Source: Polyangiales bacterium
Lineage (GTDB): Bacteria; Myxococcota_A; Polyangia; Polyangiales; Polyangiaceae
Length of the DNA: 64,000 nucleotides
Assembly (NCBI GenBank): GCA_038231275.1
Contig: JBBRLQ010000037.1
Location: 1-64,000 of the forward strand
Direction of reading: 5' to 3'
The position numbers and the translations under genes were made by a program. The stretch's first letter is position 1. Each line of letters begins with the position of its first letter. A model generated the notes under the pieces. The model saw only the letters and a program-made list of their open reading frames with translations. It was not told the DNA's origin and did not search any database. Shown here piece after piece: positions 4,994 through 8,474 of this stretch.

Positions 4994-5096
4994 CCGTCGG
5001 CATGGGGCGACGGGAGGATCAACGCTTCGAGCAGGAATCAGGGGAGAGGCAAATGGAGACCCGACGCACCAACCACACCACCGCGCGAGTCGTCCG

Positions 5097-5540
5097 ATGA
5101 CGGACGATTCAAGCTCCCGAAACCCGCGCGTCGTCCGAGACGCGATCGTGCTCTCCGCCGGACCCTCGTCGAGCACGCGGATCGCGATCAGGGTGCACGA
5201 CGACATCGACGACGGCGCCCCTACGGAACGCATGGCTCCGCCGCCCGTCACTCAAAAAGCTCCGGCCGCAAGGCGGCCGGGGAGCGAGCGCCCTACACTG
5301 CGATCGGCGACGAACCGACCCCAGCACAGCGCCGGTGTGCCGGACGGACCGCCCCCGTCTCGAAGCTATTACCCGCTGAAGAAGGCGGCGCCGCGCCTCC
5401 ACACGAACGCCAACGCGCTGCGCACCCGGTGTCAGCGCGCGGCAAAGGTCCTCGACGGCCGCATCATCGCGGAGCTCGGCGGTGGCGTCGTGGGCTTCAA
5501 GTTCGGTACGCAGTGGCGCATTCGCCTGCCGGATCTCTGA
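5097..5540 (+). CDS. Excisionase-like winged-HTH protein 2 (paralogue of protein 1)
   Basis: YPLKKAAPRLHTNANALRTRCQR...GGGVVGFKFGTQWRIRL; TGATG overlap with the next gene; start uncertain. Confidence 0.6.
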   Translation: MTDDSSSRNPRVVRDAIVLSAGPSSSTRIAIRVHDDIDDGAPTERMAPPPVTQKAPAARRPGSERPTLRSATNRPQHSAGVPDGPPPSRSYYPLKKAAPRLHTNANALRTRCQRAAKVLDGRIIAELGGGVVGFKFGTQWRIRLPDL

Positions 5541-6181
5541 TGCCGACGAGAATTCCCGACTCATCTGCCGAGCGACCGACCGGTGCACGCGTGGACGCGC
5601 CGAGTTCGCGGTATCCGCTGCTCACGACACGCGCTGCCGCGAAATACTGCGGCTTCGCAACCACCAGCGCGCTTCGAAAGGCGCGGCTTGAAGGAAGGCT
5701 CAATCCCGCTGGCCGCCGCGGCGGGACCGGCACCTGGATGTGGCGGCGTAAGGATCTCGACGCCTTCCTCTGCGGCCGCCGCGGCGCTAGCCTCTTGGAC
5801 GGACGCTCCAGTGCGCCTCCGAGTGGAGGCAAACATGGACGACAAGAAGTGGATCAAGAAGTGGAACTCATGGATCGCACCGAAGCCCTCGAAGCCGGGC
5901 GTCTGGCGCAAGAAGGAAGGAGGATTTCTCGTTCGGGGAAGAGCCGTCGATCGCCGCACGGGAAGGATGAAAGAGCTCCGGTTCGTCGCCAACGTGGACG
6001 ATCCCATCAAGGCCCTCCTGGCGTTGCAGGACGCCCTGCAACGCATCCGATCGGGAGAGGTTCAGACTCCGTCCGGACGTGTGCGATTCTGCGACTACGC
6101 AGTGTCGTTGCTGGCAGCGAAGATCAGAGCCCGCGAGATCAAGTCGGCGAAGGGCAGGGAAACGTGGGGCGTCGTTCTTGA
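5540..6181 (+). CDS. HTH_17/excisionase-like protein overlapping the integrase 5' end
   Basis: LLTTRAAAKYCGFATTSALRKARLEGRL...WMWRRKDLDAFL; no stop until 6181. Confidence 0.6.
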   Translation: MPTRIPDSSAERPTGARVDAPSSRYPLLTTRAAAKYCGFATTSALRKARLEGRLNPAGRRGGTGTWMWRRKDLDAFLCGRRGASLLDGRSSAPPSGGKHGRQEVDQEVELMDRTEALEAGRLAQEGRRISRSGKSRRSPHGKDERAPVRRQRGRSHQGPPGVAGRPATHPIGRGSDSVRTCAILRLRSVVAGSEDQSPRDQVGEGQGNVGRRS

Positions 6182-7136
6182 GCACCACCTCATCCCAGCC
6201 TTCGGCGGGTTTTTCGTCGATCAGCTCCGCTACGCCGACATCCTCCATTGGAGAGACGAGGTCGCGGGGATGATCAACGCGAGCAAATACTCCCCGGTCA
6301 CCGCCAACGGATGGTTCCGGATCCTCCGGGTCATCACGAAGGCGGCGGTCGCCGAGTACGAGCTCCCTCGCGATCCCGCCGTCGGGATCAAGGACTTCGA
6401 TACCAGCCTCCATCCCACGTACACGGAAGAGGAGCCCAACTCGCTCCTCGTCGAAGAGACCCCGCGCTTTCTCGCGAAGATGAAGGAGCTGTACCCCCAG
6501 TTCTTCGCGATGACTGCGCTCGGTTTCGCGCTCGGCCTTCGGCCCTCCTCACTCCGCCCGCTTCGGCGCGGCGGTGACACGCCGGACCTCTTGCTCGAGC
6601 AGGGGGTCCTCTACGTGCGCCGCTCGCACTCGATGGGGGACGAGGTGATGGAGACGACGAAGACCAAGCGCCGGCAGCGGATCGAGCTCCCGGAAGGTCT
6701 CCTCGAGATCCTCCGGTGGCACAGCGATCGGCTGCCGGATGGACCGCAGCGAGAGTCGGAGCTGCTCTTCCCCTCACGGGAGGGAAGCTTCCACACCCGC
6801 TCGCTCCTCGACAAGCCGTTCCGCGTCGTGGCCAAGGCGGCCGGGATCAAGAAGCACATCACCCCGAAGGCGATGCGTCGCACCTTCCAAGACCTCGCCC
6901 GCGCGGCCGAGGTGAAGGACGTTGTGACGCGCGCGATCTCGGGGCACGCGACGGAGCAGATGCAGCAACACTACTCGACGGTGAACGCCGACGAGATGCG
7001 GAGCAGCATCGCGAAGGTCGTCTCGCTCGCAGGCTTCCGCGAGGCGATGGCCTCGGGTGGTATGCATGGTGGTATGCAGCCCGAGCCCACGAAAAAGGCC
7101 GGCGGAGACGCTTCTCCAACCGGCCGTGGTGACTGA
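5835..7136 (+). CDS. int: Tyrosine recombinase/integrase
   Basis: GGAGG RBS; catalytic motifs GLRP, TKT, KAMRRT (HxxR variant), SGH, HYS; ends 8 bp before att. Confidence 0.93.
   Translation: MDDKKWIKKWNSWIAPKPSKPGVWRKKEGGFLVRGRAVDRRTGRMKELRFVANVDDPIKALLALQDALQRIRSGEVQTPSGRVRFCDYAVSLLAAKIRAREIKSAKGRETWGVVLEHHLIPAFGGFFVDQLRYADILHWRDEVAGMINASKYSPVTANGWFRILRVITKAAVAEYELPRDPAVGIKDFDTSLHPTYTEEEPNSLLVEETPRFLAKMKELYPQFFAMTALGFALGLRPSSLRPLRRGGDTPDLLLEQGVLYVRRSHSMGDEVMETTKTKRRQRIELPEGLLEILRWHSDRLPDGPQRESELLFPSREGSFHTRSLLDKPFRVVAKAAGIKKHITPKAMRRTFQDLARAAEVKDVVTRAISGHATEQMQQHYSTVNADEMRSSIAKVVSLAGFREAMASGGMHGGMQPEPTKKAGGDASPTGRGD
7057..7078 (+). promoter_or_regulatory. Integrase arm-type site pair (right, inside the int 3' end)
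   Basis: GTGGTATGCA twice with a 12-bp period. Confidence 0.75.
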
Positions 7137-7145
7137 GTTTTTCGG

Positions 7146-7218
7146 AGCGGGACACCGGGTTCGAACCGGCGACATCCAGCTTGGGAAGCTGGCACTCTAC
7201 CAACTGAGTTAGTCCCGC
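7146..7218 (-). tRNA. tRNA-Gly (CCC)
   Basis: GCGGGAC/GTCCCGC acceptor stem, CCAGC-TTCCCAA-GCTGG anticodon arm, GGTTCGAACC T arm; full CCA not encoded. Confidence 0.98.
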
Positions 7219-7230
7219 GAGAGCCCGTGA

Positions 7231-7259
7231 TTCGTAACCCTGCGCACGGCCTCCGTCAA
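7231..7259 (-). promoter_or_regulatory. Probable housekeeping-sigma promoter of tRNA-Gly
   Basis: TTGACG-N17-TACGAA. Confidence 0.55.
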
Positions 7260-7295
7260 TCGCCAAGGTCGGCGGCGATCGCGAGCGTCGCCCCG

Positions 7296-7337
7296 AAAAA
7301 ACAACGGCCCGGGTGCCCCTATGGTGCACCCGGGCCG
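7296..7337 (-). terminator. Rho-independent terminator
   Basis: Perfect 12-bp stem CGGCCCGGGTGC/GCACCCGGGCCG followed by TTGTTTTTT. Confidence 0.85.
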
Positions 7338-7812
7338 CCGGTACTGGCCCGGTCCCGGAATGTGCGGGGCCCTTTCGAGCCTCGCCCAGAACTGGGGCTT
7401 CATTCATGCGAGCAGAGACGTTGCTTCGTGCAGCGTGCCGAGCCGAAGCTCGGATAGGGAGACGCTTGCGAGTGGCCTCCCGTTACGTTGCACGCTCTCT
7501 ACCCGCCCGATTCGCCGCGTGTGACGGTCCCGCGTGGGGGAAGGTCATCGCGGCGCTTCGAGCGCTACGGCATAAGCCCCTTGGGACTCGAGCCACTGGT
7601 ACTCTGCATGATGAGAATCCTCCTCCGGCCACGCCGGCACTCGGGGGGTCGGCGGACGCTCGTCTAGAACGAGTCGCTCGTCGCCACGGCGAGTGTTTCC
7701 GCAAGGGGAGCGCGGGCCCAAGAGGGAACGCGGTCCCGGTTGTTGCCATGCTTACGCGGGTGGCCCGCGCCGGAGTAGTCCGGGATCTGAATCGAACCGA
7801 GCACGGCGACCT
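7296..7812 (-). ncRNA. Candidate large structured RNA of unknown family (contains a 14-codon ORF)
   Basis: Extended -10 upstream, terminator downstream, long 5'/3' closing helix, UUCG and GAAA tetraloop hairpins, no credible long ORF. Confidence 0.6.
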
Positions 7813-7818
7813 CTCCAC

Positions 7819-7827
7819 ATAGTAACA
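7819..7827 (-). promoter_or_regulatory. Extended -10 promoter element
   Basis: TG-T-TACTAT about 7 nt upstream of the first base of the closing helix. Confidence 0.55.
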
Positions 7828-7883
7828 CGCTCTTTCGAGCTGTCTTCCCAAGGGGGGAACGAAAAAAAGCTCGTCCGTGCGCT

Positions 7884-8474
7884 TCAGTAGGTGAGCGTCG
7901 TCTTGTCCGACTTTTTCGCGGTGAGCGTGTAGGCCATGTTGCACGGCAGGCTGGCCCACCCGCCGCCGGCGACCGCCAGCTGGTCGGAGCAATCGGAGTC
8001 TGGCGTCGGGTTGTACGCGTAGTCGAGCGAGCCGGTAAACGTCGTCGGCGCATCGCCGGCGCCGAGGGTCGCGTTGAGGCTGTCGGTGCGCGTGAGGGCG
8101 CAGCCGCTCACCTTGTTTTTGGCGTCGGCAGCGCGCAGCTCGGTCGTGCCGCTCGACTGAAGGAGCGCGTGCTGGCTGGCGTCGAGCGTGCCCTTTACCG
8201 GCAGGCCGCCCTGGAGCCAGTAGAGCGTCGAGCCGTCACGATTGAGCTTCACGTCGAACTCCCACGGATCGGGCGCGCCTCCCGCGCCGACGCACGCGTT
8301 GCTCGTGAGCTTGCCGGTCACATGAAAGACGCCGAGCGGCTGACCTGGGTTGTACGGATCTTTTCCGGAACAGCCGGGCGCGAGGGTGACGACGGACGTG
8401 AGGAAGAGGAGAGAGAGCGGCGAGAGGGGAGAGACGAAGGCAGCCAGGGCCGAGGCGAGGGGTGGACGGCGCAT
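7884..8474 (-). CDS. Hypothetical lipoprotein
   Basis: Hydrophobic signal ending LAPGC, good codon bias. Confidence 0.75.
   Translation of the reverse strand: MRRPPLASALAAFVSPLSPLSLLFLTSVVTLAPGCSGKDPYNPGQPLGVFHVTGKLTSNACVGAGGAPDPWEFDVKLNRDGSTLYWLQGGLPVKGTLDASQHALLQSSGTTELRAADAKNKVSGCALTRTDSLNATLGAGDAPTTFTGSLDYAYNPTPDSDCSDQLAVAGGGWASLPCNMAYTLTAKKSDKTTLTY

Follow-up and report, generated by a model that had tools for sequence, protein, structure and literature searches.

A conserved structured RNA with an embedded mini-ORF, predicted next to tRNA-Gly(CCC) in Labilithrix-like myxobacteria

Introduction

The described system whose architecture appears closest to the RNA element reported here is RNAIII of Staphylococcus aureus. 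Excerpts of a review present RNAIII as a 514-nucleotide (nt) RNA with 14 stem-loops that encodes the 26-amino-acid (aa) hld peptide, whose translation is delayed, possibly by an interaction with the 3' end; in the same excerpts the 3' region is highly conserved and is the site of target pairing (PMC12612679). In peptide size, the closest known system seems to be rnTrpL/peTrpL of Sinorhizobium meliloti, for which an excerpt of that review states that one small transcript gives both a regulatory RNA and a 14-aa peptide (PMC12612679). GOLLD and ROOL are often near tRNA genes, according to an excerpt of a further paper (PMC5737381). Here we describe a candidate RNA gene of about 520 nt on the minus strand of a 64-kb stretch of a Polyangiales genome (assembly GCA_038231275.1, contig JBBRLQ010000037.1, positions 1 to 64,000; hereafter the window), located between a lipoprotein gene on one side and tRNA-Gly(CCC) on the other.

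A preliminary description of this locus had proposed an unannotated RNA of about 515 nt, either non-coding (ncRNA) or a messenger regulated by folding back on itself. Our analysis agrees that the region encodes a structured RNA of no known family, but this RNA is probably more than a non-coding one: an invariant, strong Shine-Dalgarno (SD) sequence and a short open reading frame (ORF) of 13-14 codons, conserved in length, lie within it, and we therefore favor a folded, regulated small mRNA or a dual-function RNA over a plain ncRNA. The predicted order from 5' to 3' is an extended -10 element; the P1 junction, P2, a GGAAAC junction, P3/P3a and P4; the SD, a spacer, AUG and the mini-ORF; a 3' domain; and a terminator. 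That this is a real, conserved RNA gene seems to us highly probable. For the full explanation that we favor, a stand-alone gene of about 520 nt for a structured RNA that bears a mini-ORF and is either dual-function or gated by translation, we consider the case evenly balanced.

Conservation and known RNA families

Related loci were collected with the lipoprotein gene as the only anchor. An alignment of 27 lipoprotein sequences (A1) was the basis for scanning genome contigs with a single lipoprotein peptide pattern; 23 stretches matched and 21 loci were confirmed. The RNA element lies downstream of the lipoprotein gene in 15 of these 21 syntenic loci and in the window, which gives 16 sequences from roughly 9-12 distinct lineages, and these counts of carriers are lower bounds. 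The preliminary description had left its RNA to be judged by conservation and covariation in relatives, and both are present.

A blastn search with the intergenic region of the window matched one locus (L001) over its whole length at 88%; six further loci matched only over a core of 30-58 nt, consisting of the invariant CCGGAGGAGG followed by ATG. A profile hidden Markov model (nhmmer) of the 5' half recovered the window and the same number of loci, 15 of 21, once each (E of 7.5e-57 to 8.4e-30). A covariance model of the core (R1) retrieved the same 16 sequences at 74-133 bits, and the next best match in 221 kb scored 12.5 bits. The covariance model detected no diverged copies in the six loci without the element (L010, L016 and L018-L021), which also lack the tRNA, or elsewhere in the window, where the element is single copy. 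The element is conserved although the flanking lipoprotein is only 43-52% identical between loci.

We compared the element with described RNA families. With the 4227 models of Rfam 15 at the gathering threshold, only the tRNA passed in the window, and all 13 matches in the 15 homologous loci were tRNAs. At E <= 10 over positions 7000-8000, the best non-tRNA scores were 14-19 bits against cut-offs of 45-108, which is noise, and at E <= 5 nothing overlapped the element in seven homologues. ARAGORN found no tmRNA in the window or the 21 loci and, in the window, only the tRNA. Covariance models for RNase P RNA, 6S RNA and signal recognition particle (SRP) RNA had no match even at permissive E-values in the window and seven homologues, in agreement with the preliminary description, which had recognized no signature of these RNAs or of tmRNA. 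The riboswitch models of Rfam likewise had no match in the window or homologues, and the hairpin loops of the 5' domain are not conserved in sequence, which is a weak argument against an aptamer.

The size, the complexity of the fold and the neighboring tRNA recall RNase P RNA, tmRNA, 6S RNA, SRP RNA, riboswitches or ROOL/GOLLD, and the motif AGGAAAC-GUCCG is, we presume, loosely like the P4 strand of RNase P RNA. A divergent member of such a family, too distant to be scored by the Rfam models, nonetheless strikes us as highly improbable given the negative searches above, and none of these families has a canonical SD and AUG. The literature that we searched on Labilithrix ncRNAs, myxobacterial structured RNAs, ROOL/GOLLD and dual-function small RNAs contained no description of the present RNA. 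Judged from sequence comparison, it appears to be a previously uncatalogued RNA family, seen so far in Labilithrix-like (Polyangia) myxobacteria.

Secondary structure and covariation

The 520-nt stretch has a minimum free energy (MFE) of -260.4 kcal/mol, compared with -228.6 +/- 7.6 for 100 dinucleotide shuffles (z = -4.21), and none of the 100 shuffles folded as well. The plus strand folds equally well (z = -4.38), so folding energy alone neither proves an RNA nor picks a strand. In an alignment of the 16 sequences (A2; 608 columns), RNAalifold predicted 46 pairs, 16 of them with compensatory changes. We curated a structure of 57 pairs that comprises P1 closing P1a-c, P3 with P3a, P4 and the terminator. 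Its cells are paired in 93.8% of cases; sliding the 3' partners by 1-3 columns lowers this to 38-47%. Compensatory changes occur in 21 of the 57 pairs, versus 5-10 in the slid controls and 11.5 +/- 2.0 after column shuffling; none of 500 shuffles reached 21, a figure that is indicative only and not a probability, as the shuffle control is not corrected for the relatedness of the 16 sequences. The slid control keeps this relatedness and points the same way. The 5' domain (about 190 nt) and the terminator are supported by covariation. G-U pairs occur in the covarying helices (for example, U-G in 12 of 16 sequences at one P3 pair), and therefore only the minus strand fits. The elements of the 5' domain are as follows:

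7745..7807, minus strand: P1 domain, a four-way junction supported by covariation
7798-7783, minus strand: P1a, hairpin inside P1
7783-7770, minus strand: P1b (CCGGA-CUAC-UCCGG), hairpin inside P1
7769-7755, minus strand: P1c (CGCGGG-CCA-CCCGCG), hairpin inside P1
7706..7737, minus strand: P2 hairpin, of variable length, with G-rich and C-rich flanks, from single-sequence folds
7638..7700, minus strand: GGAAAC junction (near-invariant, at 7700-7695) and P3/P3a
7695-7690 (CACUCG) with 7643-7638 (CGAGUG), minus strand: P3, which encloses P3a
7685-7651, minus strand: P3a, inside P3
7618..7637, minus strand: P4 hairpin (CCGG-loop-CCGG, 7637-7625), directly abutting the SD GGAGGAGGA (7626-7618)

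Helix P1 pairs GCCGUGCU (7807-7800) with AGCAUGGC (7752-7745) and encloses the hairpins P1a, P1b and P1c. Five of its 8 pairs show compensatory (double) changes, and 93.7% of its cells are paired. In P1c, 3 of 7 pairs are compensatory, with CGGAGG/CCUCCG in most relatives and CGCGGG/CCCGCG in the window. P2 varies in length and sequence and aligns poorly, and covariation was not counted there. The AAC of the next junction is invariant in all 16 sequences. P3 has 8 pairs, 95.2% paired, of which 2 are compensatory (GC to AU in 4 sequences, CG to UA in 5), with variants running from CGUCCG/CGGGCG to CACUCG/CGAGUG; P3a also has 8 pairs, 4 of them compensatory (86.6% paired). The P4 stem and the SD core that follows it are invariant in all 16, so covariation cannot test the P4 hairpin.

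In 10 of the 16 sequences (A2 columns 45-64), P1c has the form GGAGG-loop-ACCUCC, in which an anti-SD core is paired to an SD-like arm, and in two members it reads GGAUCACCUCC, which we take to match the 3' end of 16S rRNA. We considered P1c as a mimic of the anti-SD sequence and set the idea aside, as the hairpin is conserved but the anti-SD sequence is not: the window, L001 and L014 have CGCGGG/CCCGCG in its place.

The preliminary description had placed the start of the transcript in a long helix closing the whole RNA, made of GGUCGCCG/CGGCGGCC, GUGCU/AGUAC, GGUUCG/CGGGCC and UCCCGGA/UCCGGGA. The first pair of arms (7811-7804 and 7340-7333) is complementary in the window, but the helix itself is unsupported. 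Across the 16 homologues 53.2% of its cells are paired, compared with a shuffle mean of 54.9% and 26-48% in slid controls, and a single pair is compensatory. It is absent from the MFE structure of the window and shares nucleotides with both P1 and the terminator stem, and in L001 the changes in its 5' strand are uncompensated yet fit P1. Because its pairing is at the level of shuffles, overlaps P1 and the terminator and is missing from the MFE structure, we conclude that the closing helix does not form; the 5' end closes the local four-way junction P1 instead.

Chance folding of GC-rich intergenic DNA, or the remnant of a decayed gene, would fit the ease with which such DNA folds, the similar energies of both strands (z about -4.3) and the promoter and terminator scans reported below, which were negative. 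Position, promoter motif, terminator, SD/AUG and helices are nevertheless kept across loci whose lipoproteins have diverged to 43-52% identity, and compensatory changes stand well above both controls. We regard a non-functional element as scarcely credible.

Transcription signals and coding content

The signals that would delimit the transcript are these:

7819..7846, minus strand: predicted sigma-70-type promoter, with an extended -10 and a weak -35-like hexamer
7296..7813, minus strand: predicted transcript of about 518 nt, with a start at about 7811-7813 placed from the -10 and an end in the terminator U-run
7296..7339, minus strand: intrinsic terminator, with a GC-rich hairpin and U-run

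The extended -10 reads TGTTACTAT (TG-T-TACTAT) at 7827-7819, and a 16-nt spacer separates it from a weak -35-like AAGACA at 7846-7841. At the same alignment position, all 16 homologues have TG[TC]TA...T, an extended -10 of the form TGnTAnnnT. The terminator of the window is a 17-bp GC-rich hairpin followed by a U-run, and the element ends at about 7296. A terminator is present in all 16 sequences, and 5 of its 14 pairs show compensatory changes (93.7% paired). The predicted homologous transcripts are 352-518 nt long, with 443 nt in L003.

The promoter and terminator of the preliminary description were found where it had placed them and are kept throughout the family, but simple consensus scans of the window called neither a promoter (strict two-hexamer search, 0 sites) nor the terminator of the RNA, the latter probably owing to its loop size. 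Support for both features thus comes from inspecting the sequence directly and from their conservation in 16 of 16 members. From these promoter-like and terminator signals we infer independent transcription from about 7812.

The GC content of the region by codon position is 0.65/0.61/0.72, compared with 0.80-0.89 at the third position of neighboring genes, and none of the four ORFs that overlap the region had a Pfam match. A protein-coding gene or pseudogene was rejected on the grounds that there is no third-position GC bias, no Pfam match and no conserved long frame.

The mini-ORF

The center of the element contains a feature missing from the preliminary description:

7565..7609, minus strand: mini-ORF of 14 codons followed by UAG, encoding MQSTSGSSPKGLMP; with its strong SD and AUG it spans 7626-7565

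All 16 sequences have the SD GGAGGAGG, an A/U-rich spacer of 8-10 nt, AUG and an ORF of 13-14 codons. The other two frames run for 1-78 codons or stay open, and in dinucleotide shuffles the first stop falls at the position of the mini-ORF stop with P = 0.039 per sequence. UAA, UAG and UGA are all in use as stops. In L012, where 4 nt are inserted that the sister sequences L007 and L008 lack, the ancestral UAG is now out of frame and a new in-frame UAG is used; in L009 the stop is UGA, and the conserved CGUAAC motif further on is out of frame. As both keep the length with a different stop after insertions or deletions, ORF length has been restored at least twice.

The initiation region is predicted to be open: the spacer, AUG and codons 2-5 are predicted unpaired at 0.55-0.61, compared with 0.27 for codons 6-10 and an average of 0.33 for the RNA. 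The pattern GGAGGAGG-N6-11-ATG occurs once in the window, with 0.19 expected and at least one match in 16 of 100 shuffles, and the mini-ORF site is the strongest SD-AUG pattern in the 64 kb. We consider it probable, from the sequence, that the mini-ORF is actually translated.

The predicted peptides are hydrophilic and of low complexity, with the window peptide given above and MHERSGSHPGEQT in several other members. Their nine N-terminal residues are similar in all, M-[HQ]-x-[RTP]-[SNCH]-[GS]-S-x-[PL], and the last third varies. Some changes in the mini-ORF are synonymous (CAG/CAA, CAU/CAC, UCU/UCG and CCG/CCC). The third-position GC content (GC3) of the mini-ORF is 0.33-0.69, versus 0.80-0.89 in neighboring genes, which argues against a functional peptide.

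These data bear on two simpler explanations. One is an ordinary small mRNA for a functional cytosolic micropeptide of 13-14 residues, with folded regions that are only untranslated regions (UTRs) stabilizing the message or tuning its translation. The invariant SD and AUG, the conserved ORF length, the similar N-termini, the synonymous changes and a 3' half that varies between lineages, as a UTR would, are all consistent with it. It sits poorly with a short, hydrophilic, low-complexity product whose C-terminal third is unconserved, with the low GC3 and lack of codon periodicity, and above all with the roughly 470 of 518 nt that are untranslated yet structurally conserved with compensatory changes, far above typical UTRs. 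We think this explanation unlikely.

The other is a purely non-coding RNA, such as a ribonucleoprotein scaffold, a protein sponge or a decoy for the 30S subunit, in which SD, AUG and ORF are RNA-level elements and no peptide has a role. Conservation inside the ORF that extends to third positions, the engagement of the ORF middle in predicted helices, the large covarying fold and such housekeeping-like traits as a strongly conserved promoter and a tRNA gene alongside would suit it. But SD, spacer and AUG are arranged precisely as at an initiation site, in a region predicted to be open, and no RNA-only model predicts that a length of 13-14 codons is kept through insertions and deletions by way of different stops. 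We rate a purely non-coding role as slightly less probable again, and we regard both of these explanations as serious competitors of the reading that we favor.

The 3' domain and alternative pairings

Downstream of the mini-ORF, the predicted transcript continues into a region that differs between lineages:

7340..7564, minus strand: lineage-variable multi-hairpin 3' domain, including the stems 7453-7438, 7381-7368, 7481/7463 and 7496/7438

Here the window and L001 cannot be reliably aligned with the other homologues, and hairpin loops are not conserved between lineages. All of the sequence elements listed in the preliminary description were located at the positions it gave, among them the minus-strand stems CCGAGC-UUCG-GCUCGG (7453-7438) and GGCUC-GAAA-GGGCC (7381-7368). 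Every arm of its internal stems occurs once or a few times, but, with a 3' half that varies by lineage, several of the stems are found in the window and L001 only. GGGAGGC/GUCUCCC and CCGCG..UGAC/GUCA..CGCGG each show one compensatory change between these two sequences, which are 88% identical with 64 differences. When the MFE structure of the window was tested on the changes in L001, 14 changed pairs were kept (2 compensatory and 12 one-sided), 8 were broken and 3 fell in gaps, versus 1-5 kept and 3-9 broken in slid controls.

The 3' half of the 11 other homologues was aligned separately (A3). Its consensus has 35 pairs, 95.1% paired versus 37-60% when slid, with 8 compensatory pairs versus 0-4. 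One hairpin of this consensus, P8, is well supported. A further part is a long-range helix, paired in 11 of 11, in which GGCUCUC.UC.GGG from mid-ORF faces the conserved distal strand CCC.GG...GAGGGCC. A corresponding pairing is predicted in the window, between the distal strand GGGACCGGGCCA (7356-7345) and the mid-ORF stretch at 7595-7584 (UGGCUCG.. with ..CGGGCCA).

As a separate observation, CCCCUUG/CAAGGGG (7583-7577 with 7708-7702), a stem named in the preliminary description, would join the C-rich tract before GGAAAC to a G-rich tract in the mini-ORF. Complementary C-rich and G-rich tracts were seen by eye at the same two places in several homologues (GCUCC/GGAGC in L015, ACCUC/GAGGU in L011). 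This is a possible pseudoknot or alternative fold; it competes with P2 and was not counted.

Neighboring genes and tRNA-Gly(CCC)

The features that flank the element in the window are listed below:

7884-8474, minus strand: lipoprotein-like gene of 196 aa, upstream of the RNA element, with 4 invariant cysteines and no Pfam domain
7231-7259, minus strand: promoter-like motif of the tRNA, TTGACG-N17-TACGAA, between the RNA terminator and the tRNA
7144-7218, minus strand: tRNA-Gly(CCC), identified by Rfam and ARAGORN
5583-7136, plus strand: tyrosine integrase (PF00589), beyond the tRNA
2753-2795 and 7145-7187: 43-bp perfect direct repeat of the 3' part of tRNA-Gly(CCC), in copies 4.4 kb apart

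In the 21 loci, tRNA-Gly(CCC) comes after the lipoprotein gene, with a gap, in 13. The promoter-like motif that precedes it is conserved as ATTGAC...GTTACGAAC in most homologues. With a conserved TTGAC-N17-TACGAA between the terminator and the tRNA, the tRNA appears to have its own promoter, and we regard the motif as a likely separate promoter for tRNA-Gly(CCC).

This arrangement bears on whether the RNA is a cis-acting leader that attenuates the tRNA through translation of a leader peptide and the terminator. The leader-like mini-ORF, the hairpins and the terminator have an attenuator-like layout, and the tRNA begins 42-91 nt past the terminator in 12 of 16 members. The distance to the tRNA is, however, 648 nt in L004 and 1086 nt in L015, where an opposite-strand gene (about 5040-5975) is inserted between the two; no tRNA was found in the following 1.05 kb of L012 and 3.6 kb of L014, the sequence available. 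Some 190-230 nt separate the mini-ORF stop codon from the terminator, and a conserved promoter-like motif precedes the tRNA itself. GGG, the codon read by tRNA-Gly(CCC), occurs in only 4 of 16 mini-ORFs (the window, L001, L005 and L009), and no codon forms a run; sensing of the tRNA through a conserved GGG codon was rejected on this ground. An attenuator of the tRNA is, in our judgment, very unlikely.

The 43-bp repeats and the tyrosine integrase appear, from their sequences, to bound a small integrated element, about 4.4 kb in length. The RNA element lies outside it, on the 5' side of the tRNA, and is single copy in the window, and the idea that the RNA is itself a repeat or part of a mobile element was rejected for these reasons. 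In L015, an integrase-like ORF (6266-7360, minus strand) stands directly after tRNA-Gly(CCC) (region 6121-7360), and by eye its translation resembles the integrase of the window. tRNA-Gly(CCC) may be a recurrent integration site in this lineage.

At least 100 of 924 candidate proteins qualify as homologues of the lipoprotein (E <= 1e-3). They come from Labilithrix and related myxobacterial metagenome-assembled genomes, which marks the source of the window as a GC-rich, Labilithrix-like member of the Polyangia. The family is conserved, its members are almost all unnamed metagenome proteins, and the RNA accompanies it in 16 of 22 loci examined. A short motif, CGG-N-CGAGCT(CG), follows the lipoprotein stop codon (about 7862-7872 in the window, some 50-60 nt upstream of the predicted RNA start) and is conserved at the equivalent place in the loci, often as the palindrome CGAGCTCG. 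The motif might be where a regulator acts, or it might simply belong to the 3' end of the lipoprotein gene.

Discussion

We propose the following model for the structured RNA with its mini-ORF. The open initiation region would admit ribosomes, which would translate the mini-ORF; the middle of this ORF would form one strand of the long-range helix with the 3' domain. Because the middle of the ORF lies within this helix, we propose that translation and folding of the RNA are mutually exclusive, an exclusion that we infer from the predicted pairing. The conserved length of the ORF would set the position at which the ribosome stops relative to the next hairpin. The transcript might then act as a dual-function or translation-gated RNA, as the translation of hld in RNAIII is tied to 3' structure. 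As a mode of action, remodeling gated by translation is a tentative suggestion from the model.

Several observations weigh against the proposal. The long-range helix is almost without covariation: 7 of its pairs are nearly invariant, and 2 others show a double change, seen in one sequence each. When the sequences were folded one at a time, the distal strand was the dominant ensemble partner of the ORF middle in 7 of 16 members, including the window; in the other 9, the ORF middle prefers to pair elsewhere, with the SD/P4 region in 4, in a local hairpin in 4 and split in L017. An alternative helix, in which the ORF middle would sequester the SD (CCGGAGGAG with CUCUCAUCCGG), is paired in 85% of cells with no compensatory changes; it is absent from the window, L001, L009, L011 and L013 and was not adopted. 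The mini-ORF has no clear three-base periodicity, with several third positions invariant while first and second positions vary, and its conservation could therefore be at the RNA level. To these points we add the negative consensus scans and the relatedness that limits the shuffle control.

A bolder extension, about which we are more doubtful, is that the RNA represents a large bacterial riboregulator of a new class, organized around the translation of its own frame, in which ribosome traffic would switch the fold. Such a riboregulator, about 0.5 kb long, would be constitutive and of housekeeping type; it would offer ribosomes a super-strong binding site and a 13-14 codon frame of fixed length within a long-range helix. 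Its fold would be switched by translational capacity or by stalling at the conserved G-S-H-P stretch, and its output could be the peptide, an RNA conformer or both. If true, the RNA would parallel for translation the role of 6S RNA in transcription, and myxobacteria would have a bifunctional RNA resembling RNAIII.

Large bacterial RNAs with several junctions supported by covariation are rare, and earlier ones (RNase P, tmRNA, OLE, ROOL/GOLLD and raiA) each opened new biology. The RNA described here belongs to a myxobacterial lineage that has received little study. An intricate fold, an invariant strong ribosome-binding site and a mini-ORF of fixed length occur together in it, which makes it a clean candidate for work on mutual control between translation of a tiny frame and RNA folding. 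As such it would extend dual-function RNAs beyond Firmicutes and Proteobacteria. Its annotation is missing in every carrier genome, and the 16 sequences are a ready seed alignment for a new RNA family. Even if it were only a micropeptide mRNA with long UTRs, it would still be a conserved gene of 13-14 residues that is invisible to gene callers.

Compared with ROOL, GOLLD, raiA and OLE, the present RNA is similar in being an unusually large, multi-junction bacterial RNA found by comparative genomics, and like GOLLD and ROOL it is close to a tRNA gene, abutting tRNA-Gly(CCC) in 12 of 16 members. It differs in having no Rfam match, a ribosome-binding site with an ORF and a narrow known distribution, and it lies outside the adjoining integrated element and not in a prophage. 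GOLLD, ROOL and rnTrpL/peTrpL are all unrelated to it by sequence or model.

tmRNA (ssrA) is also a structured RNA of a few hundred nt with a short central frame partly in a hairpin, and is often near integration sites and tRNA-like genes. The tmRNA frame is entered through a tRNA-like domain, with neither an SD nor an AUG. The present RNA has both, invariant; no tRNA-like end was found, pairing between its 5' and 3' ends is not conserved, and its peptide lacks the hydrophobic ending of a degradation tag.

rnTrpL, a short trp attenuator, lies upstream of trp genes and contains Trp control codons. It shares with the present RNA a mini-ORF of the same size followed by hairpins and a terminator. 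The present RNA is 3-5 times longer, with a large structured 5' domain and no repeated regulatory codons, and has downstream no protein gene but an adjacent tRNA with its own promoter-like motif. Of what marks a leader-peptide attenuator, we found no codon run; the tRNA has a promoter-like motif, and 4 of 16 members lack the tRNA or have it at a distance. Of what marks a dual-function RNA, we observed a promoter motif and terminator in 16 of 16 together with the invariant SD/AUG and length-conserved ORF, set against negative scans and a lack of periodicity.

RNAIII has no sequence or Rfam relationship to the present RNA and belongs to a different phylum. The peptide predicted here is half as long as that of RNAIII and hydrophilic, not a membrane-active helix, and the 3' domain is the least conserved part of the present RNA, whereas the review excerpts describe that of RNAIII as highly conserved. 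RNAIII is a stand-alone transcript of about 0.5 kb with many stem-loops and a short ORF in the 5' part, and the present RNA is predicted to be the same. The likeness may extend to control of that ORF, which may be held back by the 3' end in RNAIII; in the present RNA its middle is predicted to pair with the distal 3' strand.

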